From contig JAHLWR010000008.1 of NCBI GenBank assembly GCA_019057815.1, forward strand, positions 94,540-158,539: 64,000 nucleotides of DNA, given 5' to 3'. Each line of letters starts with the position of its first letter. The stretch's first letter is position 1. A program made the position numbers and the translations under genes. Positions 46,472 through 58,763 of this stretch are shown here, in pieces. The notes under the pieces were generated by a model. The model searched no databases. It worked only from the letters and a program-made list of their open reading frames with translations, and had not been told where the DNA came from. Source of the stretch: Candidatus Heimdallarchaeota archaeon. Lineage in GTDB: Archaea > Asgardarchaeota > Heimdallarchaeia > Heimdallarchaeales > Heimdallarchaeaceae.

Positions 46472-47428
46472 TTATGGAACGAACCTGGTTCCTGTTTCAC
46501 CCTTTAAAGCCCGACCGATGTTTTCAGGATTGGTTACCAGGGCTTCTTTACCACCCTGCTCTAAAAACCCAACAATGGCTTTGATTTTTGGTTCCATAGA
46601 TCCTTTTGCAAAATGAGTTCCTTCCTTTAGGTACTTTTTTGCCTCAGCAACGGTGAGCTGATCAAGATCAACTTGATCCGGTTTACCAAAATTCAAGGAA
46701 ACTTTTTCAACGGCGGTTGAAATCAAAAGCATATCTGCCTTAATTTCATTGGCTAGGAACGCAGATGCAAAATCTTTGTCAATAACAGCTGCAGTCCCCT
46801 CTACTCCTCGATCGGTTTCAATAACCGGTATTCCTCCACCACCTACAGTAATTGTGATTATACCGGAATCAATCAGAGTTTTTATAGCTTCTAGTTCCAA
46901 AATCTCAACAGGTAACGGGGAAGCAACAACTCGACGCCAACCACGACCAGAATCTTCAACTACATTCCAACCTAATTCTACTTTTCTTTGTTCAGCTTCT
47001 TCTGCTTTCATGAATGTACCAATGGGTTTAGCAGGTGTTTGGAAAGCAAGGTCATTTGGATCTACCCGGACTTGAGTGATCACTGTCGCTACTGGTTTAT
47101 CAATTCCCCTTTTTTTGAGCTCGTTTTGGATATTCTGCTGCAGGTAATAACCGATAGCTCCCTGGCTGTCAGCTCCGCAAACATCCAGGGGAAGTTCATG
47201 CATACCTTCCACCTTATGGGCAATTTCACTTCGTCGTAAAATGAATCCAACCTGAGGTCCATTGCCATGTCCTATTGCAATATCCCAGCCCGATTCAATC
47301 ATGTCTACCAGGTGAATTGAAGTTTCCTGGACAGCTTTGTATTGATCTTGTACAGTTTGGTGATGTTTGGATTTGATGAGTGAGTTGCCACCAATAGCAA
47401 CGACAGCTACTTTTTTCTTTTCTGACAT
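46472..47428 (-). CDS. arcC: carbamate kinase
   Basis: AIGGNS, HGNGPQVG, KPIG, GWRRVVASP, GGGGIPV, AVIDKD, GSMEPK; ATG at 47428. Confidence 0.95.
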   Translation of the reverse strand: MSEKKKVAVVAIGGNSLIKSKHHQTVQDQYKAVQETSIHLVDMIESGWDIAIGHGNGPQVGFILRRSEIAHKVEGMHELPLDVCGADSQGAIGYYLQQNIQNELKKRGIDKPVATVITQVRVDPNDLAFQTPAKPIGTFMKAEEAEQRKVELGWNVVEDSGRGWRRVVASPLPVEILELEAIKTLIDSGIITITVGGGGIPVIETDRGVEGTAAVIDKDFASAFLANEIKADMLLISTAVEKVSLNFGKPDQVDLDQLTVAEAKKYLKEGTHFAKGSMEPKIKAIVGFLEQGGKEALVTNPENIGRALKGETGTRFVP

Positions 47429-47696
47429 CGGTATCACATTTCTTATATTGTGTAGTTTAAACATTTCGTTTTCTGACTTAGTGCATTAGATATAAAATCT
47501 TTAATATAACTTAATTATTTCTTCAAAACTAGATTCTTCCTCTTCTTTCCCCATAGCAGTCAACTTTCCTTTTTCACAATACTTTCTATGGTTATTTCAA
47601 TTATTTCCTTTGATGCAAGTGTAGTTCCCGACACTAGTGCATTAAAACTTAAATATTACTTAAAACATAAAATATATTACTATTGGAGATGATAAG

Positions 47697-48374
47697 ATGG
47701 AAAAGAAAATATCGCTAAAAACTATAATTAGTGTAACCTGGCTTGTTGTACTAATTGCATTATGGGTTACGTTCCAATGGCTCCCTGGAGATATCTTTAT
47801 GTGGATGTGGATAGCTATAGGTTGGTCATTCTCTGGTGGTACTGTAGGAGCTATCTATTTTGCAGCTAAAAGCAAGAGAAATCTCTTAATTGTCAGTTCA
47901 ATATGGATTGCAATATTGATAGTCCTTTGGATAGATTGGTTTTTGAGATTCTTACCTAGAGTAGAAATACATTTAGCGTTCAGTTATGCAGTACAAGTAG
48001 CTTTTCTTGACGAAAAAGGTAAATTAACAAAAATAATAGCAACACACGATGTCGGCAAAGCAATCAACCCTATGGCTTGCGCAGGTCAATTTGAAGGCGG
48101 TGTTCATATAGGTCTTGGTCATACTCTTTCAGATAACTATCCAACAACAAAAGGGATTCCAGATTCCTTGTTGATGAGAGATCTTCAAATAGTTAAGGCT
48201 AAAGATACACCCGAAGTAGAAGTTATTTTAATAGAAGAACCAGAAGAAGTTGGAAGATTTGGATCTAAAGGTGTTGGTGAAATATGCCTCGTACCAACAG
48301 CTGGTGCAGTTACTGGCACACTCCATCAGTTTGATGGTAAATGGCGATTTGAACTCCCCGTTTCACGAAAATGA
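47697..48374 (+). pseudogene. chimeric ORF: 3-TM membrane protein N-terminus fused in frame to a duplicated xdh C-terminal fragment
   Basis: hydrophobic residues 1-90, then HLAFSYAVQ...FELPVSR matching the XDH C-terminus with GGF>GRF and EIG>EIC changes. Confidence 0.7.
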
Positions 48375-48382
48375 TTGAGAAT
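47969..48382 (+). repeat. copy 2 of about 413-bp direct repeat (xdh 3' end)
   Basis: see 46007-46419. Confidence 0.92.
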
Positions 48383-48389
48383 GATACAA

Positions 48390-49592
48390 ATGAAAGAAAA
48401 GATACTTACAAAAGCTGATGAATACAAAGAAAATCTGTTCAAATTTTTACGAGACATGATTCGTATTCCAAGTACTAGCAGTAATGAGGAAGATCTTATT
48501 AAGCGTATTAAGCAAGAAATGGAGAAGCTTGACTATGATGAAATCAAGATTGATAAAATGGGTAATATCTTTGGAAGAATTGGAAACGGTAAACATGTCT
48601 TTGCATTTGATGCACATATTGATACAGTAGATGTAGGAAATCGCAATAACTGGACTCACGATCCTTTCGAAGGTTATGAAGATGATGAGGTAATTTACGG
48701 GCGAGGTGCTAGTGATCAAGAGGGTGGGTTTGCTTCTATGGTCTATGCTGGGAAAATCATTAAAGATTTAGATATAGCAGGTGATACTACAGTATGGATG
48801 GTAGGAACAGTTCAAGAAGAAGATTGTGATGGACTTTGCTGGCAACACATTATTAAAGAAAAAGTCATCGAACCTGATTTTGTTGTTTTAACAGAACCTA
48901 CCTCACTCAATGTATATCGAGGACATAGAGGAAGGATGGAAATAAAAGTAACAACAACTGGTATCAGCTGTCATGGTTCTGCACCTGAACGTGGCGATAA
49001 TGCTATCTATAAGATGGCTCCAATTATCCAAGAATTATCCCAACTCCACGAACAATTAAGGGATGATCCATTCCTAGGAAAAGGTTCTTTAACAGTTTCA
49101 GAGATTTTTTCAAGCTCTCCATCAAGGTGTGCAGTTGCTGATGGATGTTCAATTTCAATTGATAGAAGACTTACTTTTGGAGAGACCAAAGATACAGCTC
49201 TTAAAGAAATACGAGACCTACCTTCTGTCATAGAACATAATGCAAAAGTCGAGATGCACACTTATGATAAACCCTCGTATACAGGTCTTCAAAAAACTGT
49301 TGATTGTTATTTCCCAACCTGGGTCATTCAAGAAGAAAATCCATTATGTGGAATGTTTGTAGATGCAGCTACTGAAATTATGGATAAAGAACCACTTTTA
49401 GATAAGTGGACTTTCTCAACAAATGGTGTATCCATCATGGGCATGCATAATGTGCCATGTATTGGCTTTGGTCCAGGAAGAGAAAACCAAGCTCATGCTC
49501 CTAATGAGATAACATTCAAAAAGGAACTTAAGATTGCAGTTGCAGTATATGCTACTATACCTTTAAAATATACTGAACTTAAGAATAAATAG
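48390..49592 (+). CDS. ygeY: YgeY-family M20 hydrolase
   Basis: [48 protein letters not shown]. Confidence 0.9.
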
Positions 49593-49600
49593 GTGTAAAA

Positions 49601-50566
49601 ATGAGAACAAAACTTCGAGGAAAAGACTTCATAACTTTACGTGATTGGTCTAAGGAAGAAATAGATATTCTACTGGAAGTTTCAGCTGAAATAAAAGAAA
49701 AATTCTTGAAAAAAGAAGTAACACCATATCTTCTGTATCAAACCATGTTTCTCATGTTCTTCGAAGAATCAACAAGAACAAGGAACTCAATGGAAGCAGG
49801 ATTTGCACAACTTGGTGGTCATGCAAACTTTCTAGATACATCAAAAATGCAAATATCCCACGGAGAAGTTGCTAAAGATACAGCTGCTATATTGTCGAGT
49901 TACGGACATGCAATTGCTTGCAGAAATTGCTTCTGGGGAATAGGAAATAAGTATCTAAATGATATGGCAAATCATTCCAAAGTACCTATCATGAATTTAC
50001 AGTGTGACTTGTATCATCCAATGCAAGGTATAGCTGATCTTATGACAATCATTGAGAAGAAGGGAGAAACCAAGAATCTCAAAGTGTCAATAATCTGGGC
50101 CTATGCTACAACTCATAAAAAACCAATTTCAGTCCCGTTAACACAAGCTCTCTTATTTCCACGTTATGGAATTGATGTAACCTTAGCATATCCTGAAGGT
50201 TTCGAGTTACCTGATTGGGTGATTGAAGAAGCTAAAGAGAATGCTAAGAAAAATGGTGGTTCCTTTAGAATAACTCATAATATGAAAGAAGCATTCAAGG
50301 ATGCTGATATCGTGATCCCTAAGAATTGGGGAAGTTGGAGTGGGAAGAAAGGTGATATGGATCTGTCTCAGTTCAAAGACTGGAAATGTACAGAAGAGAT
50401 GATGAAGCTCGCATCACCTGATGTAAAATATATGCATGCACTTCCAGCAGATCGAGGAAATGAAGTAGAAGATTCTGTTCTTGATGGCCCTCAGTCAATC
50501 GTTTATGATGAAGCTGAAAACAGGCTCCATACTTCTAAAGCAGTGATGATTCTAACAATGGGATAA
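49601..50566 (+). CDS. ygeW: YgeW-like carbamoyltransferase
   Basis: STRT, HPMQ, WAY...KP.SVP, MHALPAD, EAENR. Confidence 0.8.
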   Translation: MRTKLRGKDFITLRDWSKEEIDILLEVSAEIKEKFLKKEVTPYLLYQTMFLMFFEESTRTRNSMEAGFAQLGGHANFLDTSKMQISHGEVAKDTAAILSSYGHAIACRNCFWGIGNKYLNDMANHSKVPIMNLQCDLYHPMQGIADLMTIIEKKGETKNLKVSIIWAYATTHKKPISVPLTQALLFPRYGIDVTLAYPEGFELPDWVIEEAKENAKKNGGSFRITHNMKEAFKDADIVIPKNWGSWSGKKGDMDLSQFKDWKCTEEMMKLASPDVKYMHALPADRGNEVEDSVLDGPQSIVYDEAENRLHTSKAVMILTMG

Positions 50567-50627
50567 ATTTAGTTATAAATAATCATGACCTATTATGGAA
50601 AATATTGAACGACTCAAAGAGCTCCTT

Positions 50628-51161
50628 TCAGATTTCGATTACATCACCAACATATCTAAATTGTCCAGGCCAGAAAATGAATGCTTTAGACCGATCATAA
50701 TCTTTAGCTAAATGAGCAGCTACTACTTCACCAACGAACCACGTATGCGTTCCCCCTAAATCAAGAGTATGAACAACCTTACATTCTAGATTAACAGGAC
50801 ATTCTTTTATTAAATATGAACTTATTTTTGAAGCTTTTACCGGTGTAAGACCTGTTGCTTTAAATTTATCTTCAACATCTCTACCTGAAATTTTTCCGAT
50901 ATACTTCACATCATCTATAAATTCAGTTGTGGGGATATTTATTGAATAATCCTTTACTTCTTTTATCAGTTCAAAGGAATATCTTTTGGGAACAATTCCG
51001 ATCATAATTAAAGGAGGATTATCGAATGAAACCATACTAATTGCAGCTAGAGTTATAAGATTTTTACCAATACACCCTATAACAATAGGAAAACCAGGTA
51101 AAGATAAAATACCCTTCTTACCTGAAACAATTTCTTTATCAGAATTATCCATTTCATTCAT
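50628..51161 (-). CDS. flavin reductase family (flavoredoxin-like) protein
   Basis: NPPLIMIGI..RYS, SGRD..DKF, ECPVNLECKV, GTHTWFVGEV. Confidence 0.88.
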   Translation of the reverse strand: MNEMDNSDKEIVSGKKGILSLPGFPIVIGCIGKNLITLAAISMVSFDNPPLIMIGIVPKRYSFELIKEVKDYSINIPTTEFIDDVKYIGKISGRDVEDKFKATGLTPVKASKISSYLIKECPVNLECKVVHTLDLGGTHTWFVGEVVAAHLAKDYDRSKAFIFWPGQFRYVGDVIEI

Positions 51162-51412
51162 TATGAAGCCTTTTCTTTTGTGTTAATAAGTATATTCTCA
51201 AAAAAATTTGATTTATTTCTTTTCAAAAAAGACAATATTAATATGAAAGTATGATAGTATTAGTTCGTGAAAAAGGATTTTAGATATAGCATGAGCCTGG
51301 TAAATGGTTCTGTATACCGTCGTCCACTGAGTGTAAAAAAGTTGACTAACCTTGCCAGAGAGAGTGAAAAGGGAGAAGAAAGACTTTTGACGGGGAGAGA
51401 AGAAGAAAAAGT

Positions 51413-51979
51413 ATGTTAGTAAGGATAGGAATAGCAGCGGAATGATGGGGAGTGTCAGCTAGTACAGTACGACGATGGGAGGAGGAAAAGAAAGTGAGAC
51501 CAGACTGTAGGACGAGAGGAGGACATAGGAGATACAATTTAGCCAGAATTTTAGGTAAAAAAGACAAGAAAAGGAAGAGAGCAGTTTTGGGTTATGTTCG
51601 CGTGAGTGCGACAAAACAGAAAAAAGAACTTGTTAGTCAACGACAAAAGATTGAGAGTTACACAGAAGAGCAGGGGTGGCAGTTGAGGAAGATTTTTACT
51701 GATATTGCTTCGGGAATGAACGATCAGAGAAAAGGGTTAAAGAGATTATTAGATGCGATAGCGACTCAGCAACCTTATGCTGTTATATGTGCATATGAAG
51801 ATAGAGTAGCACGTTTTGGGACAAGAGTGATTAAGCATTATTGTCAGACTTTCAACACTAAAATTGTAGCTATACACCAACCATTGAACCAATCAACTGA
51901 AGGGAAACTAGTGGAAGATATGATAGCTTTAGTTACTTCGTTTGCTGGGAGACTCCACCGATAACGGAGAGGAAAATAA
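51413..51979 (+). pseudogene. tnpA: IS607 TnpA (MerR-like HTH + serine recombinase) with in-frame TGA at 51443 and probable premature TAA at 51962
   Basis: MLVRIGIAAE*WGVSASTVRRWE, RTRGGHRRY, GYVRVS, DIASG, EDRVARFG, LVTSFAGRLHR*RRGK*. Confidence 0.8.
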
Positions 51980-52053
51980 CAAAAAAAAAGAAAACAAACT
52001 GTTTTTTATATAGTTTAAATACCAATTAAAAGATGTTAATACTGAGTGAATAA

Positions 52054-54012
52054 ATGATGTCTACTCAAGTACAGTCAACAACAAAAATACACCCCTCTCT
52101 CCCTCGTACGAAGGTGATGAGAAGCTACCAGTTGGCGTTTGAGCACTTGAGTAAAACAGAGAGAATAGAGATCAACCAAAGGATAGAGAAGCTGGAAAAA
52201 GAGCAAAAAGCGCTCCTAACACCAACAATAGTTACAAAAGCCTTGGAACTCTATCGTTCTAATCCTAAAGAGATATTCTTTACAAGGAAATTGTGTAAAG
52301 AGGTGGGTAAAAGTCCGAATATAGCTGAAAGCGCTTTCCACTGGTTATATATAGCTATTCAAGGAAAAGTGGATAAAGAGAAGAAAATACAAGGAATATT
52401 CAACTTCTGGCAGAAAAATCCTCAGCAGTTACTAGAATGGGTGATATTTGGACGCTCCCCTTATACTGAGCACAGTTTCCAGAAGTATTGGAAAGTGGGA
52501 AGAAGGTTCATCATTAACCTTCTGACTAGCACGAGACTACAGACAGACTCTTACTGGAATAGGAAATTAACACGAAGGTGTGTAACTTCAAATGTGAAAT
52601 TTAATCACGTATTACCAACTGTGACACATAACGAAGTTATTTTAGCTATAGAAGATGCTTATAAATACAAAATGCACGAGTTTTCGTCAATTCCCAAACT
52701 TTCCCCTAACCAACAATCCTTTCTAAATAAATTGAAATTGTTAGTACATGAGAAACAGCAAGTAGCGTCTTTTGTTACTTCGTGGATCAACACCCCCCAA
52801 AAATCTCGTTGGAAAAGTCTCAAAGCTCTCACTCAACAGATAACCGAATTTGTAGGAAAGAAAAACCGAAAACTCTTCTCAGCTGTAAGGTTGATAGTAG
52901 TTTTCGCACTCTTTGACCATCTAATGGAGAGTGTCCCTCAGTTAGTCCTTTCTACCCTACCAGAAGAGGTTGTCCCTCGACCATTTAAAAGAAAGAAAAA
53001 AGGCAAATTACCAATAAAATTGTTAATGAAAAAAGAGTGTGTTATTACCCGTGAAGGTAATGCTAGAGTATTGACTGCAAAAGTGAAAAAGCAAGGATGG
53101 ACAGAGTTAGGTTTCCCCCAACGAGGAAAAAAGAAAACTAAAGCCCGTGTTCTCTTCCCCGCCAAAGTCTTGGAATATCTACGTAATGGAGCGAGTATCA
53201 AAATCTTGCAGGTTAGCAGTGGTGAAGCACCCAGTTACAAACCTCGCATAGATGTGGTTTTAGAAGGAGCACACGAATGTTTCCGCTCAACTACACTCTT
53301 ACAGCACTATATGACTATTATTCCCTCAGGTAACGCTCCCACTTTGGGTGTGGATATTAACCGCTTGGGAAAGTTCATGGTGACATTTAACACTCCTGTT
53401 AAGCTCCCCCCAGATTTGTTGAAACTGGTAAAAGGTTACACCTGCCTAACCGATAAAGTTCTCAAAGAACTCAATAGAGGATTAGCTAAAAAACGTAAAT
53501 TACGCGATTCTCATGGCTGTTGTAAACTCATTGGGGAATTAAATAGAGTCTATACTCGCAGAAGTAGGATTTTGCGTGAAATTCTTCGACGGTTACCCTT
53601 CTTTATAGCAACAGTGATAGCTAAACACCATAGTCGTGTCTTGAAGATTGAGGAATTAAACGTCGATCCCACAGGTACGAAAGGTGCATTAGCTAAAGCT
53701 ATTTACACCATGCCTGATAACTCTTTCATCTATGAAAAAGCTGTCTGGTTAGCTTCTTCAGAACTAGGTTATGATGTTAACCTAGAGCAAGTTAACCCCT
53801 TCAATACCAGCCGACTCCATAACGTTTGTGGAGGAGTTCTTGATCGTAACTCTGGTCATTACGACTATGCTTATTGCAATAACTGTGGACTGAAAGTCAA
53901 TACTCACTTCAATGCAGCTATCAACATCTCTTCAAAGCATGGTAGGCCTTTATCTTCACGTTCCTTCCCTCCCCTCAACGCATGTGAGGGGAACACTTTA
54001 AACGACGGTTAG
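52054..54012 (+). CDS. tnpB: large TnpB-like RuvC protein, 652 aa
   Basis: RuvC-I LGVDIN, RuvC-II KIEEL, VNPFNTS-HxxC..CxxC zinc finger, RuvC-III-like NTHFNAAINI. Confidence 0.82.
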   Translation: MMSTQVQSTTKIHPSLPRTKVMRSYQLAFEHLSKTERIEINQRIEKLEKEQKALLTPTIVTKALELYRSNPKEIFFTRKLCKEVGKSPNIAESAFHWLYIAIQGKVDKEKKIQGIFNFWQKNPQQLLEWVIFGRSPYTEHSFQKYWKVGRRFIINLLTSTRLQTDSYWNRKLTRRCVTSNVKFNHVLPTVTHNEVILAIEDAYKYKMHEFSSIPKLSPNQQSFLNKLKLLVHEKQQVASFVTSWINTPQKSRWKSLKALTQQITEFVGKKNRKLFSAVRLIVVFALFDHLMESVPQLVLSTLPEEVVPRPFKRKKKGKLPIKLLMKKECVITREGNARVLTAKVKKQGWTELGFPQRGKKKTKARVLFPAKVLEYLRNGASIKILQVSSGEAPSYKPRIDVVLEGAHECFRSTTLLQHYMTIIPSGNAPTLGVDINRLGKFMVTFNTPVKLPPDLLKLVKGYTCLTDKVLKELNRGLAKKRKLRDSHGCCKLIGELNRVYTRRSRILREILRRLPFFIATVIAKHHSRVLKIEELNVDPTGTKGALAKAIYTMPDNSFIYEKAVWLASSELGYDVNLEQVNPFNTSRLHNVCGGVLDRNSGHYDYAYCNNCGLKVNTHFNAAINISSKHGRPLSSRSFPPLNACEGNTLNDG

Positions 54013-54070
54013 AAAGCCTCTGGCAATTTTAACCAAGTTTCATAACGTGCGTAATGGGAATTTTTATCTC
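53940..54070 (+). ncRNA. candidate omega/reRNA scaffold plus flank-derived guide
   Basis: hairpins CCCCTCA/TGAGGGG (53971-53991) and GGTTAGAA-GCC/GGC-TTTTAACC (54007-54034); CACGTT (53957-53962) pairs with terminal AACGTG (54044-54049); 5' end uncertain. Confidence 0.55.
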
Positions 54071-54405
54071 GAAGACATCTATATGTCTGATCAAAAAATT
54101 ACAAATATTGTTCCTTCTGGAAAAATCCTACCATGCAAAAAAATAGTAGACTGTTCAAATAAACTAATTTTACCTGGTTTTATTGATCTCCATGTACATA
54201 TCAATCTTGACTTGGGTGAATTCGCTAAGTACAAATGTTAGTTTTTTAATTTATTTTCTTATTTGGTATTAATCTTTAATTTTATTAAAATAGTTTATAT
54301 TTGTTATACATAATTCATAAGTGTGAAAAGAATATCAAAGAGATTAAATGAACTGCTAATGTAAAAAGTTATTAAGTTTAAAGAGTTTGAGAGATGTGAT
54401 TAAGA

Positions 54406-57090
54406 GTGTCGGCTATGCAAATTCCAGCCCAAATTATAAAAATACATAGTTTAAATGAACGCGAACTTCATCAATCTGGTAAACAGGGTAATGAAGAAAA
54501 CGTCAAAATTTTCATTGTTAAACCTCTTTTAGATGCTCTTGGATATAATAAACCTAGCAGAATCAATTACGAACATAAAATTGATTTAAAGCGCGTAGAT
54601 ATTGCTTTATTAGTTAATAAAAAGCCTGTGGTGTTAGTTGAAGTTAAACAATCAAATGCTAAATTAAAAAATCATCTAGAACAAGCTATCAATTATTCCA
54701 ATAGCTGTCAATGTCCTTATACTCTTCTTACAAATGGCGAAGAATTTCAATTATATCGTACTTTCATCCCAAATGTAATTTATCCTAAAGATCGACTAAT
54801 TCATACATTCAAACGAACTGACCTTCTTGATGAGTGGTACAAACTCTTCGAACTTATTTCTTACGAAAATCTGGCACAAGGTGCTTTGAAAACGTATGCT
54901 GATAAAAAAGCTATCGAAATCCGAGATACGGTGTTACCTGTTACTTTATCTGACCATTTGCGGAATGCAAAACTGCTGTTAGTTCCTGCATACGAAGCTA
55001 ATATAAAAGAAAGAATTGCCAAAAGTAGGAGTTTTTTACTTAAATACAACAAATGGAAAAAAGATAATAATCTCCTTAAAATGAAAGAAGACAAAATATT
55101 AAACAAATTGGCAAGAATGGCAGCCTATAATCTTGTTACTAAAATATATTTCTGTCGTATCCTGGAAGATAAGAAGAAGATTAAGAAACGATTGGGAAAA
55201 ATAGCAAGTCAAAAAAGCATACAACAAGGAGAAATCAGAGACATTCTTCGCGCTTCATTTGCTGCAGTATTGGAAATTGATTATCGAGCAATTTTTGAAA
55301 TTGAAATTTTTGATTCAATATTTCCAAATGATGAGAAGTTAGTTATTAATACAATTATCAATCTTAAAGAATATAGATTCGATGAAGTTGATCAAGATGT
55401 ATTAGGACGTATATATGAACAGCATATCGATAAAGATGAAAAAAGAGATTTAGGGCAATATTATACTCCTGCATGGATAATAAAATACATCTTTGATCAT
55501 ATCCCTTTGGATACCAGACACATAATTTTGGATCCAGCTTGTGGTTCTGGTGGTTTTTTGATTGAAGCTTATAACCGTCTCTTCCAAAAATACAAAGCTG
55601 AAACGTATTCTGATGCAGAAGCACATGCAAATATACTTGATCACAACTTATTTGGTTTTGACATTAACTCTTTTGCTGTTATGCTATCTGCAGCTAATCT
55701 AGCTTTACGCAATATTGACATACCAACAGATGATATTAACACTTTTGAGCTTGATTCCCTGAAATATGATGTTAGTCATTATCTTCTTGGGATGAAAAAA
55801 CAGAATACTGATGAATCTTTTATATCAGAAAAAATTCACCTTGAAATCCCAAAAGCTTTTGATTTAATAGTTGGTAATCCTCCTTACTTTGTAGTTAAAA
55901 ACGAAGTAGTACGAAAAGAATACATAAGTACATTTGGTCCTTATAAAAAGGTGATAGAAACCAAAACTAATATTGTATCACTATTTATTGCAAAATATCT
56001 TTTATCACTTAAAACTGGTGGATGTCTTGCTTTTGTTGTACCGAAAGCATTGCTGTCCTTAAAAAATTGGACCAATTCGCGAAAGTTCATTTTGAAACAT
56101 TCACAAATAATGAGGATTTTTGATATTCGGGAAGCCTTTGAAGATGTTAAGCTTGAAATGATTGTACTCATACTGAAGAGAACAAATAGTAAATGGTCGC
56201 CTGATGATAAATCTGTAAAGGTTGATTACCTGAAAAAAGGTTCTTCTCGTAAATACAACTTAGAAAAAATTTATTCTAATGAAATTCCCTATGCTGAATT
56301 TACTGAAGATATCTTCCCAATTTACAAGGATGAAATCAATAAAAGTATATTCGATAAAATGAATACTGACTCAAAGAAACTAGGTGATATAAGTTTCTCG
56401 CGAAGAGGTGCACCTATTCAACCTCATAAAAACTTATGGTTAAAGAAAAAACAAAAAAGTAGTAGCATTTCTATCCTCAGAGGAAAGGACGTACAAAATT
56501 ATTATTTCACTCCTATATATTGGATTGATCAGAATTATCCCGTTTTTGACAAATATAAATCTTATTTTGAGCATCGGAAGATGCCAAAAATTATGGTTCA
56601 GCGATTAATATCTCAAACACAAGATCATATAAAAATCATAGCTAACTATGATCCTGGCGCATATTTGCCTATAGATACGGTTGTTTATTTTCTAATTCAA
56701 GATGTAGCCTTTAATCCACTGTACATACTAGCGTTACTTAACTCTCGTTTGTGTGCCTATTATATCTACAATTTTATTTTTAATCGAGCAACAAGAGGAA
56801 TGAATTTTTCTTATGCCAAAGACTTACCTATAAAAATAATACCTAAAGAACTTCAAGAAGAAATAGCTAATAAAGCACAGTTACTCATTAATCATCTTAA
56901 AACAATAAATAAGCTTGAACAGGAATATAACGACATCACAGATTTAGACGCTTCAAAGATAGAAGCAAAAAAACACATACGTGATTTAAGGAAAGAGATG
57001 TCTATAGCTCAAAAAGAGATTGATAAAGCAGTTTTTGACATCTATGGATTAAATGAGGATGAAATTAGAAAAGTTAAGACACAAAAATAA
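54406..57090 (+). CDS. type IIG-like fused restriction endonuclease / N6-adenine methyltransferase
   Basis: HsdR_N-like RVDIAL..VEVK and LTNG, GQYYTP, DPACGSGGFL, GNPPY, C-terminal TaqI-like TRD (YILALLNS, LPI). Confidence 0.88.
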   Translation: MSAMQIPAQIIKIHSLNERELHQSGKQGNEENVKIFIVKPLLDALGYNKPSRINYEHKIDLKRVDIALLVNKKPVVLVEVKQSNAKLKNHLEQAINYSNSCQCPYTLLTNGEEFQLYRTFIPNVIYPKDRLIHTFKRTDLLDEWYKLFELISYENLAQGALKTYADKKAIEIRDTVLPVTLSDHLRNAKLLLVPAYEANIKERIAKSRSFLLKYNKWKKDNNLLKMKEDKILNKLARMAAYNLVTKIYFCRILEDKKKIKKRLGKIASQKSIQQGEIRDILRASFAAVLEIDYRAIFEIEIFDSIFPNDEKLVINTIINLKEYRFDEVDQDVLGRIYEQHIDKDEKRDLGQYYTPAWIIKYIFDHIPLDTRHIILDPACGSGGFLIEAYNRLFQKYKAETYSDAEAHANILDHNLFGFDINSFAVMLSAANLALRNIDIPTDDINTFELDSLKYDVSHYLLGMKKQNTDESFISEKIHLEIPKAFDLIVGNPPYFVVKNEVVRKEYISTFGPYKKVIETKTNIVSLFIAKYLLSLKTGGCLAFVVPKALLSLKNWTNSRKFILKHSQIMRIFDIREAFEDVKLEMIVLILKRTNSKWSPDDKSVKVDYLKKGSSRKYNLEKIYSNEIPYAEFTEDIFPIYKDEINKSIFDKMNTDSKKLGDISFSRRGAPIQPHKNLWLKKKQKSSSISILRGKDVQNYYFTPIYWIDQNYPVFDKYKSYFEHRKMPKIMVQRLISQTQDHIKIIANYDPGAYLPIDTVVYFLIQDVAFNPLYILALLNSRLCAYYIYNFIFNRATRGMNFSYAKDLPIKIIPKELQEEIANKAQLLINHLKTINKLEQEYNDITDLDASKIEAKKHIRDLRKEMSIAQKEIDKAVFDIYGLNEDEIRKVKTQK

Positions 57091-57446: not shown

Positions 57447-58763
57447 ATGTATAATCTAGGTCTCATAAATGGGAAAGTATATCGTAATGGGCAATTTACT
57501 CATCTAGATGTATATGTCCAAGATCAGATTATTGCAAAAATTGTTCCTTCTGGAAAAATCCTACCTTGCAAAAAAATTGTAGACTGTACAAATAAGCTAA
57601 TTTTACCTGGATTTATTGATCCCCATGTACATATCAATCTTGACTTGGGTGAATTCAAATCAAGCGATGATTATGAAAGCGCTTCAAAAGCTGCAGCTTT
57701 TGGTGGCATTACAACGTTTATAGATTTTCTTGAACCAATCAGTTATGTCCATGAATTTGATGCGATGCTAAAGAAGAAACAAAAAGAAGCAAAAGCATCC
57801 TATATTGATTATGCTTTTCATACAGCAGTTGGCAATTTTAATGATGATGTGGACAAGCTCATCAAGATTTCACGCGAAAGTGGAATCCCTTCTGTTAAAA
57901 TGTTTACCACATATTCTGAATCTAATCGCAAAATTACTTATACCAAATTTCAGGAGTTCCTGAAGAATTCTTGTAAGACAAATACACTGATTTTGGTTCA
58001 TGCTGAGAATGATGAAGAGATACTCAGTGCAAATGTTGAAGATACAGTAGAGAGTTATGAAAGTTCTAGACCAGCAGTCTCAGAAATAGAAGAGATAGAG
58101 AAAATAGCGAGGATTGTAGCAGAACTAAAAGGAACACTCTATATTGTGCATGTCACCTGTGGTTCATCAATTGAGCTTCTGAATGATAAATACAAAGAAC
58201 TTCTAGGAAAGAACATTTTCATAGAAAGCTGTCCACAATATTTCCATTTTACAAAAGATGTTTATGATAATGAAAATGGCAACTTATTCCTTCTTGCTCC
58301 ACCACTACGTTCAATAAAAGAACAGGAAAAACTCAAAGAGAATATTTCAGTTATAGATACCATTGGAACTGATCATTGTCCGTTTACTAAAGAAGAAAAA
58401 ATGCGTTATAAAGAAGCAAGTAAAATACCAAAAGGACTGGGGAGCTTGGAATTCAGTTTTTCTCTCATGTATCACATTTTTGGCAACGAAATCATAGATA
58501 AATTCACTCTAAATCCAGCAAAGATTCATAATCTCTTTCCAAAGAAAGGTATAATACAAATCGGATCTGATGCAGATTTTGTCATTTTTGATCCTAAAAA
58601 GGTGCTATTTATCAATTCAGGTCATTCTCAATCAGATTATAATCCATATGAAAGTATGCTAACTACTGGAATGGTTGAATCTACCATTCTCAGAGGAGAA
58701 ATCCTAGTTAAAAACAGAAAATTAGTTGGTTCTATGAGAGGGCAATTTATTAAAAGACACTAA
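57447..58763 (+). CDS. hydA: dihydropyrimidinase/hydantoinase (cyclic amidohydrolase, HyuA/YgeZ-like)
   Basis: PGFIDPHVH, AAAFGGITT, SVKMFTTY, VHAEN, ESCPQY, GTDHCPF, GSDADFVI. Confidence 0.88.
   Translation: MYNLGLINGKVYRNGQFTHLDVYVQDQIIAKIVPSGKILPCKKIVDCTNKLILPGFIDPHVHINLDLGEFKSSDDYESASKAAAFGGITTFIDFLEPISYVHEFDAMLKKKQKEAKASYIDYAFHTAVGNFNDDVDKLIKISRESGIPSVKMFTTYSESNRKITYTKFQEFLKNSCKTNTLILVHAENDEEILSANVEDTVESYESSRPAVSEIEEIEKIARIVAELKGTLYIVHVTCGSSIELLNDKYKELLGKNIFIESCPQYFHFTKDVYDNENGNLFLLAPPLRSIKEQEKLKENISVIDTIGTDHCPFTKEEKMRYKEASKIPKGLGSLEFSFSLMYHIFGNEIIDKFTLNPAKIHNLFPKKGIIQIGSDADFVIFDPKKVLFINSGHSQSDYNPYESMLTTGMVESTILRGEILVKNRKLVGSMRGQFIKRH

Follow-up and report, generated by a model that had tools for sequence, protein, structure and literature searches.

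A large TnpB-like protein with a clade-conserved His at the RuvC-III position and a predicted omega-RNA in an IS607-family element of a Heimdallarchaeon

Canonical TnpB proteins of the IS200/IS605 and IS607 OMEGA systems are ~400 aa long and carry a D-E-D triad. Among TnpB-derived proteins, those of the TldR type lack RuvC residues or are truncated, are immobile, and lie beside the genes that they regulate, and Fanzor2 keeps Asp in RuvC-III. Altae-Tran et al. (PNAS 2023, PMC10691335) described six large TnpB branches in which RuvC-III is altered; the largest of these RuvC-III-rearranged (RIIIr) branches, RIIIr-4, has His for Asp, lacks the zinc finger and is linked to MazE/ribbon-helix-helix (RHH) genes, and the archaea-restricted rearranged branches include Ser-6 / RIIIr-6 / MazE, with Ser-6 linked to a serine recombinase. 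Here we analyze a 64,000-nucleotide stretch of the genome of a Candidatus Heimdallarchaeota archaeon (GCA_019057815.1, contig JAHLWR010000008.1, positions 94,540 to 158,539; hereafter the window, in whose numbering positions are given), in which 51321-54052 is an IS607-family insertion sequence (IS) of the Heimdallarchaeon and the tnpB-like gene at 52054..54012 (+ strand) is an ordinary component of that element, not a stand-alone system. The gene encodes a 652-aa protein in which the catalytic triad reads D-E-H, and a predicted structured RNA lies at the right end of the element; taken together, the data suggest a mobile OMEGA system whose remodeled D-E-H site is probably still catalytic, a reading to which we assign a probability of roughly 0.65.

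Like the RIIIr branches, the family to which this protein belongs has a clade-conserved His for the RuvC-III Asp, keeps the RuvC-I Asp and the RuvC-II Glu, has an archaeal host, and is linked to a serine recombinase. It is not RIIIr-4 itself, because the zinc ribbon is kept and the neighbor is tnpA: RIIIr-4 has no zinc finger and an RHH/MazE neighbor, whereas this family has an HCCC ribbon and a transposase gene, and the RIIIr-4 association is echoed by a weak MazE-like match in distant giant relatives only. A preliminary description of the DNA, made from the letters alone, had read here a 652-aa frame with the RuvC-I Asp in GVDIN, the RuvC-II Glu in IEEL, an HxxC/CxxC zinc finger and a His at the RuvC-III Asp position, and all of these readings were borne out. 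The + frame at 52054-54012 is uninterrupted and the antisense strand is closed by many stops; the RuvC-I Asp is D434 (codon 53353..53355, in G-V-D-I-N-R), the RuvC-II Glu is E533 (53650..53652), the zinc ligands are H589-x2-C592 and C608-x2-C611, and the RuvC-III motif reads N-T-H618-F-N-A-A-I-N-I, with H618 encoded by CAC at 53905..53907, all on the + strand. In a phmmer search against PDB chains, H618 pairs with the RuvC-III Asp of CnCas12f1 (8hr5, VNADYNAARNI) and of Cas12f 9nzq, and the family profile likewise places it on that Asp in Cas12f and TnpB chains of known structure. The canonical D-E-D triad is therefore not found, the third position being H618 with D434 and E533 kept, across the clade. 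A role for H618 as a zinc ligand was considered and rejected, since four conserved residues (H589, C592, C608, C611) already serve the ribbon as ligands.

The His is conserved across the clade. Four intact paralogs are present in the genome (3.7 Mb, 48 contigs) at 100, 92, 84, and 42% identity, and all four, including the one at 42%, keep D434, E533, H618, and the four zinc ligands. A word-indexed search yielded 131 clusters at 90% identity, the named ones being Candidatus Heimdallarchaeota/Heimdallarchaeaceae, with most of the proteins 620-650 aa long; among 103 full-length close relatives, D434 and E533 are invariant (103/103 each) and H618 is found in 100. Alignment A4, whose 52 rows come from word-indexed and exhaustive HMMER searches and reach down to 19% identity, has D434, N436, and H618 in 52/52 rows and E533 in 51/52 (with one D), and the zinc ligands are conserved in 50-52 rows. 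At the genome level, a locus search with the single protein gave 5 close loci, and a search with the family profile was used instead; it found the family in 28/30 genomes of the host's taxonomic family, 25/25 of genus g5, and 65/400 of the phylum, usually in multiple copies and with an open frame in nearly all of the ~60 full-length matches. These results uphold the earlier suggestion of a distinct archaeal clade in which the His is conserved, and close homologs did not revert to Asp, as a private inactivating mutation would have predicted; we reject such a mutation because His is found in the paralogs and in close and distant relatives alike. The clade of large D-E-H proteins in the preliminary description thus stands, but its novelty was set too high, since Asp-to-His TnpB branches had been described (PMC10691335).

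To place the protein as a whole, we combined Pfam, NCBIfam, and phmmer searches with an AlphaFold2 model, VIA-align superpositions, and the ratio of nonsynonymous to synonymous rates (dN/dS). Its sole Pfam match, PF07282 (Cas12f1-like TNB), passes at 33.2 bits vs. a cut-off of 26.3; the NCBIfam models for Cas12f2, guided TnpB, and IS607_TnpB match weakly over residues 449-630, with Cas12f2 the best of these weak matches, and the profile match to Cas12f chains has E 3e-8. The model built from A4 (pLDDT 89.3, pTM 0.83) has the WED-REC-WED-RuvC order and the split RuvC with inserted TNB ribbon of the TnpB superfamily: a WED strand at aa 20-29, a helical REC at aa 30-316, a WED barrel at aa 317-410 or, more narrowly, 321-406, RuvC from aa 430, the TNB zinc ribbon at aa 585-616, and a disordered tail at aa 638-652. 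About 350 residues across aa 20-630 superpose on Cas12f 8dzj (Z 15.3), and the model also matches ISDra2 TnpB 8h1j (Z 14.5, 340 aa, rmsd 4.5) and ISFba1 TnpB 8iaz (Z 14.5), so that in this comparison, which the preliminary description had proposed, Cas12f and TnpB score above Fanzor2 9b0l, the weaker match at Z 11.9. The ~300-aa helical N-terminal region noted there without an assignment corresponds to modeled helices at aa 34-306; because the model superposes on Cas12f and TnpB over aa 20-630, this region is, in the model, the REC lobe, enlarged by ~270 aa relative to that of ISDra2 TnpB. Searched alone against 48,161 PDB representatives, the REC lobe (aa 30-316, model pLDDT 93.2) gave as its best match a mitochondrial RNA polymerase (Z 7.8 over 85 residues), a value below the noise for helical domains that does not imply a novel fold; the matches listed included no REC of Cas12, TnpB, or Fanzor. 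In four close copies (three from this genome and one from the congeneric genome G011), dN/dS is 0.13-0.19 for the full protein and 0.10-0.16 for REC, which indicates that the protein is maintained over its whole length, the extension included.

At the right end of the element, 53971..54052 (+ strand) is the predicted 3' module of an omega-RNA scaffold, as indicated by conservation, covariation, and retention in mini-elements. The module covers the last 14 codons of tnpB and 40 nt past the stop codon; among relatives whose proteins are just 60% identical it has changed less than the coding sequence has, and the similarity breaks off at a single nucleotide. It comprises an invariant CCCCTC/GAGGGG hairpin (53971-76 with 53986-91), a pseudoknot between the hairpin loop and the last seven scaffold nucleotides (53979-85 with 54045-51) recovered by RNAalifold on the alignment, and three nested stems (54000-03 with 54037-40, 54007-14 with 54027-34, and 54016-18 with 54022-24). 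Changes on both sides are found in 6/7 pairs of the pseudoknot, where pairing holds in 94.9% of cells. Over the pseudoknot, hairpin, and nested stems together, 92.2% of cells are paired, compared with 25-42% with slid partners, a comparison in which the unslid register is favored by the nested stems, taken from the window's own minimum-free-energy (MFE) fold, and in which the pseudoknot comes from the alignment. Compensatory changes are found in 16/28 pairs, and the observed values were reached in 0/500 shuffles. The single-sequence fold of 53860-54052 has a z-score of -1.28, which is not significant alone, and Rfam gave no match at E <= 1 across 51000-54400; that single-sequence fold instead pairs 53957-62 with the 3' end, a helix that is not conserved in the ~60%-identity relatives.

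The synonymous rate (dS) is depressed in the tail codons, and this together with the disorder of the protein tail is as expected if the RNA, and not the protein, constrains those codons. The anatomy agrees with that of known omega-RNAs, in which a pseudoknot lies beside the guide, the scaffold extends over the tnpB 3' end, and the flank supplies the guide: here the RNA covers the 3' part of the gene, stops at the right end of the element, and is followed by flanks that differ between copies. We infer that the RNA at 53971..54052 is an omega-RNA for which the 3' extension into the flank (AATGGGAATTT...) would serve as guide. The RNA-guided function suggested in the preliminary description gains support from this conserved structured RNA, which shows compensatory changes and terminates at the right end.

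The borders of the element (51321..54052, + strand, 2732 bp, without target duplication) were established by comparing empty and occupied sites, by comparing copies, and by pairing left and right ends. In the congeneric genome the orthologous empty site (G011:C6) reads ...GTATACCGT|AATGGAAATTT..., so that an empty ...ACCGT|AATGG... is opposed to an occupied ...ACCGT[CGTCC...GTGCGT]AATGG..., with no base gained or lost. The CGT common to the left junction and the right end leaves the borders movable by up to 3 nt, as expected of a serine-recombinase crossover core; an IS607-type insertion is further indicated by the lack of target duplication and of terminal inverted repeats and by the short, identical core. 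Similarity among copies begins at 51316 and stops sharply at 54052 (...CATAACGTGCGT), and from the empty site and these copy borders the element proper is therefore 51321-54052. Metagenome contigs have unrelated flanks at 51315/6 and 54052/4; four DNA runs gave contig fragments only, with no joint spanning the element. The left end (CGTCCACTGAG..., 51321..51357, + strand) is kept in mini-elements and also in full copies of other genomes.

The insertion lies at codon 10/11 of an amidohydrolase gene, directly 3' of ACCGT. The first 10 codons of the disrupted gene are at 51291..51320 and the remainder, from codon 11 to the stop, is at 54053..54241, where Pfam Amidohydro matches are found (both on the + strand); the intact paralogous amidohydrolase at 57447 reads GTA TAT CGT AAT GGG (V-Y-R-N-G) across the insertion site. 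The host bases ACCGT at 51316-51320 (+ strand) are a candidate target-adjacent motif (TAM), as suggested by the empty site and the left-end flanks: A[C/T]CGT precedes 5/5 left ends in this genome, and ACCGT or ACTGT precedes left ends elsewhere. The putative guide flank AATGGGAATTTTTATCTCGA (54053..54072, + strand) corresponds to the target in the empty site, where G011 matches it at 19/20 positions immediately after ACCGT. From the junctions and one exact empty site we propose A-Y-Y-G-T as the candidate TAM.

Upstream of tnpB lies tnpA (51413..51964, + strand), which has the composition of an IS607 transposase, with a MerR-like helix-turn-helix domain (Pfam MerR, E 9e-6) and a serine-recombinase domain (Pfam Resolvase, E 6e-20). 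Its codon 11 is TGA (51443-51445), with TGG in relatives (MLVRIGIAAE*WGVS vs. AAEWWGVS, the asterisk marking the stop), and the frame here also stops five codons early; contigs of related populations (runs X3/X4) carry G at 51445. On this reading of the codon, tnpA is disabled in this copy by a private TGG-to-TGA change. The full-length G011 copy L006/L031 (G011:C137) has an in-frame tnpA stop as well (KGL*RLL) and an intact tnpB, and in the genus the transposase decays faster than tnpB. Paralogs L002 and L003 retain only the final ~100 nt of tnpA, and among ~38 loci from relatives a full tnpA precedes tnpB in 12 and a 3' remnant does so in ~11.

Copies without the protein also occur. The genome has 11 right ends, with 11 mutually different flanks, and 5 left ends; four of the five left-end/right-end pairs delimit mini-elements of 368-369 bp without an open reading frame, and the fifth pairing gives the 2732-bp element. 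The mini-elements keep just both ends and the 3' RNA module, with left ends 86-95% identical over ~42 nt to that of the full element, and upstream of 53971 their interior departs from the 3' part of the tnpB coding sequence. A resemblance of this interior to the tnpB promoter region (51991-52034) was rejected, its score of 32 lying below the shuffled maximum of 34. For mini-elements L046 and L047 the flanks gave no usable empty site in G011, and the L045 site in that genome is filled by 1096 nt of other DNA.

We propose that excision would leave an empty donor site in which the A-Y-Y-G-T motif is followed by a match to the guide, that the protein-RNA complex would recognize and cut this site, and that recombinational repair from a sister copy would restore the element. 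The enlarged, ~270-aa helical REC lobe might hold the guide-target duplex, and mini-elements may borrow the protein in trans. In this scheme the active site would be remodeled, not dead, as argued by the invariance of D434, E533, H618, and the clade-specific N436 down to 19% identity. Elsewhere among RNase-H-fold nucleases, His serves well as a metal ligand or as a general base, as in the DEDH tetrad of Argonaute, in some RuvC resolvases, and at H983 of Cas9. We also count the mobile lifestyle in favor of activity, and Altae-Tran et al. (2023, PMC10691335) argued that the conserved RuvC-III Asp-to-His branches stay active.

Several observations weigh on the other side. The protein scores 24.3 bits against the NCBIfam guided_TnpB model (NF040570; cut-off 100) and 20.7 against IS607_TnpB (NF038280; cut-off 350), cut-offs that are missed because the family is too divergent for these models. 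One orthologous empty site, that of the contig C8 mini-element, reads GCTGAC at the expected ACCGT, so that A-Y-Y-G-T may not be required, and it may reflect target choice by the recombinase and not a TAM. The element is probably no longer autonomous, because tnpA is broken here (and in the G011 copy L006/L031). With respect to chemistry, canonical TnpB and Cas12 no longer cleave once the RuvC-III Asp is removed, and we know of no experiment so far in which cleavage by a His-type TnpB was shown.

In the most serious competing explanation, the Asp-to-His change kills cleavage and the complex only binds its donor or target site, for example recruiting or regulating the serine recombinase or repressing transcription like TldR, in the manner of Cas12m/Cas12k-type proteins. 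An enlarged REC lobe is found in several binding-only Cas12 relatives, which is a weak argument, and one residue of the catalytic triad is indeed replaced; nuclease-dead TnpB derivatives are also known (PMC10691335). Such dead lineages, however, lose the remaining catalytic residues (PMC10691335), whereas D434, E533, and H618 are invariant here to 19% identity. A binding-only role would also be hard to reconcile with putative guides that are right-end flanks, different at each copy, with the lack of a conserved host neighbor, and with elements that are mobile and polymorphic between species. The comparison with TldR and other nuclease-dead TnpB proteins leads in the same direction: TnpB derivation and an altered RuvC site are shared, but D and E are invariant, the C-terminus is complete, the element is mobile, and the neighbors are variable, so that the protein does not have the TldR profile. 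We regard a binding-only function as unlikely, though worth serious consideration.

The decay of the transposase invites two further readings, in which tnpB is either an immobilized TnpB derivative domesticated for a cellular function, with the transposase remnants as relics, or a decaying pseudogene in which His is one of several inactivating changes. In support of the former, tnpA has a nonsense codon here and in G011 L006/L031 and is deleted in L002 and L003, and tnpB is intact and under purifying selection despite this loss. Yet the insertion is absent from the congeneric orthologous site, the copies lie in unrelated contexts, many family members have an intact tnpA, the mini-elements keep both ends, and tnpB-only copies that outnumber tnpA-bearing ones are normal for TnpB elements (PMC10691335); domestication is accordingly very unlikely. 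The latter can appeal to the broken tnpA next door, but it conflicts with a 652-codon frame that is intact in four paralogs and open in nearly all of the ~60 full-length matches, with a dN/dS of 0.13-0.19 and with a His that is invariant in the clade, and we consider it scarcely credible. A type V CRISPR effector (Cas12) with its array elsewhere is the reading to which we give the least weight, next to none: Cas12f is among the best structural matches and Cas12f2 is NCBIfam's best weak match, but the gene lies inside a delimited IS with tnpA, no cas gene was found among the neighbors scanned, and a search for tandem or CRISPR arrays over 40000-64000 found none, in agreement with the absence of an array noted in the preliminary description. 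We retain the mobile OMEGA system with a probably catalytic D-E-H site as the preferred reading.

Set against the solved systems, the locus resembles the canonical TnpB/OMEGA elements of IS200/IS605 and IS607 (ISDra2, 8h1j/8exa; ISFba1, 8iaz), with which it shares domain order and fold (Z 12.6-14.5), an RNA over the 3' end of the gene, a transposase partner, and protein-less elements that keep the RNA. It differs from them in being 652 aa and D-E-H instead of ~400 aa and D-E-D, with a REC ~270 aa larger, a RuvC-I motif of G-x-D-x-N-R, a His as the first zinc ligand, and similarity under the NCBIfam cut-offs. Cas12f proteins (8dzj, 7wju, 9nzq, 8hr5) are the best structural and sequence matches of the 652-aa protein, but here the gene is transposon-borne, the REC is larger, RuvC-III has His, and 40000-64000 holds no CRISPR array. 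IS607-TnpB-type ancestry and overall fold (Z 11.9) are shared with Fanzor2 (ApmFz2, 9b0l), which scores below TnpB and Cas12f (Z 14-15) in structure and has no sequence-level match; nothing in this analysis places the clade on the line to Fanzor.

Whether a RuvC with His as the substitute for the third carboxylate still cuts DNA is a question for the whole published class of such TnpB proteins. To that class the locus adds a delimited element, an exact empty site with ACCGT, a candidate TAM, a natural guide, an omega-RNA model, and an intact protein, and with these components the D-E-H chemistry becomes directly testable. Should the site be active, the editing toolbox would gain large and divergent RNA-guided nucleases of archaeal origin in which the active site is laid out in a new way, and the family would illustrate how a large REC lobe can evolve in TnpB without CRISPR. 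An inactive site would make this the first case of a mobile TnpB that only binds, and would challenge the idea that cleavage of the empty site is how TnpB benefits transposons.

Beyond the 620-650-aa proteins, relatives of 789-1784 aa, some of them named Odinarchaeota and Hodarchaeales, carry the same G-x-D-x-N and N-T/S-H signatures, with the His counted where the C-terminus reaches RuvC-III. The giants include P0192 (1784 aa, Odinarchaeota; L073:2301-7655), P0185 (1669 aa, Hodarchaeales), P0271/P0164 (1344/1327 aa), and P0155 (1227 aa). Their C-terminal His-type RuvC signatures read G-I-D-L-N ... V-N-T-H-x-S/N-A and follow an N-terminal part of 1000+ aa, in which P0185 and P0192 have a weak MazE/AbrB-like match around aa 650-700. 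On a speculative view, which we think improbable, these proteins would belong to a deep Asgard superclade of TnpB-derived, His-type (D-E-H, G-x-D-x-N) proteins that grew stepwise from ~600 aa, as in this IS607-borne form, to 1200-1800 aa in Odinarchaeota/Hodarchaeales. Growth of REC would then have been Cas12-like without CRISPR, the chemistry might differ from that of D-E-D enzymes in metal preference, nicking, or substrate, and the GCTGAC site could be a cleavage scar.

The neighbors of the tnpB-like gene are metabolic genes, tnpA, and a restriction-modification gene. A cluster at 46472-51161 encodes a carbamate kinase, a molybdopterin-binding fragment, an M20 peptidase, a ygeW-like carbamoyltransferase, and a flavin reductase; the IS sits at its edge and interrupts an amidohydrolase (hydantoinase-like) paralog of that cluster. 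To the right, a 174-nt direct repeat of 84% identity (54050-54223 and 57483-57656), which is a duplicated 5' part of the amidohydrolase gene, brackets 54406-57090, a type IIG-like restriction-modification gene of GC content 0.28-0.32 whose 894-aa product has HSDR_N, N6_Mtase/Eco57I, and TaqI_C domains. This gene looks like a separate insertion beside the IS. Between tnpA and tnpB, TTTATATA at 52005..52012 (+ strand) is possibly the archaeal TATA box of tnpB, a candidate read from the letters in a region conserved in three close copies.

Some minor observations concern the other copies. At the contig C8 mini-element (368 bp; G000:C8, L044:1501-1874), comparison with G011:C145 (L053 ~1801-1808) shows the flanks adjacent there, at 91-96% identity, with GCTGAC in the empty site where the occupied site has ACCGT and the element; this single case might reflect scarring by repair or a TAM-escape change. 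Beside mini-element L045, a short repeat of ~40-90 nt (L045:1134-1224) matches >15 places in G011 and probably represents another family of miniature inverted-repeat transposable elements (MITEs). Several divergent copies (L032, L033, L035) adjoin tRNA genes downstream of the right end, the tRNA-like sequence lying within ~60-100 nt of that end, and in L003 it lies ~70 nt past the right end.

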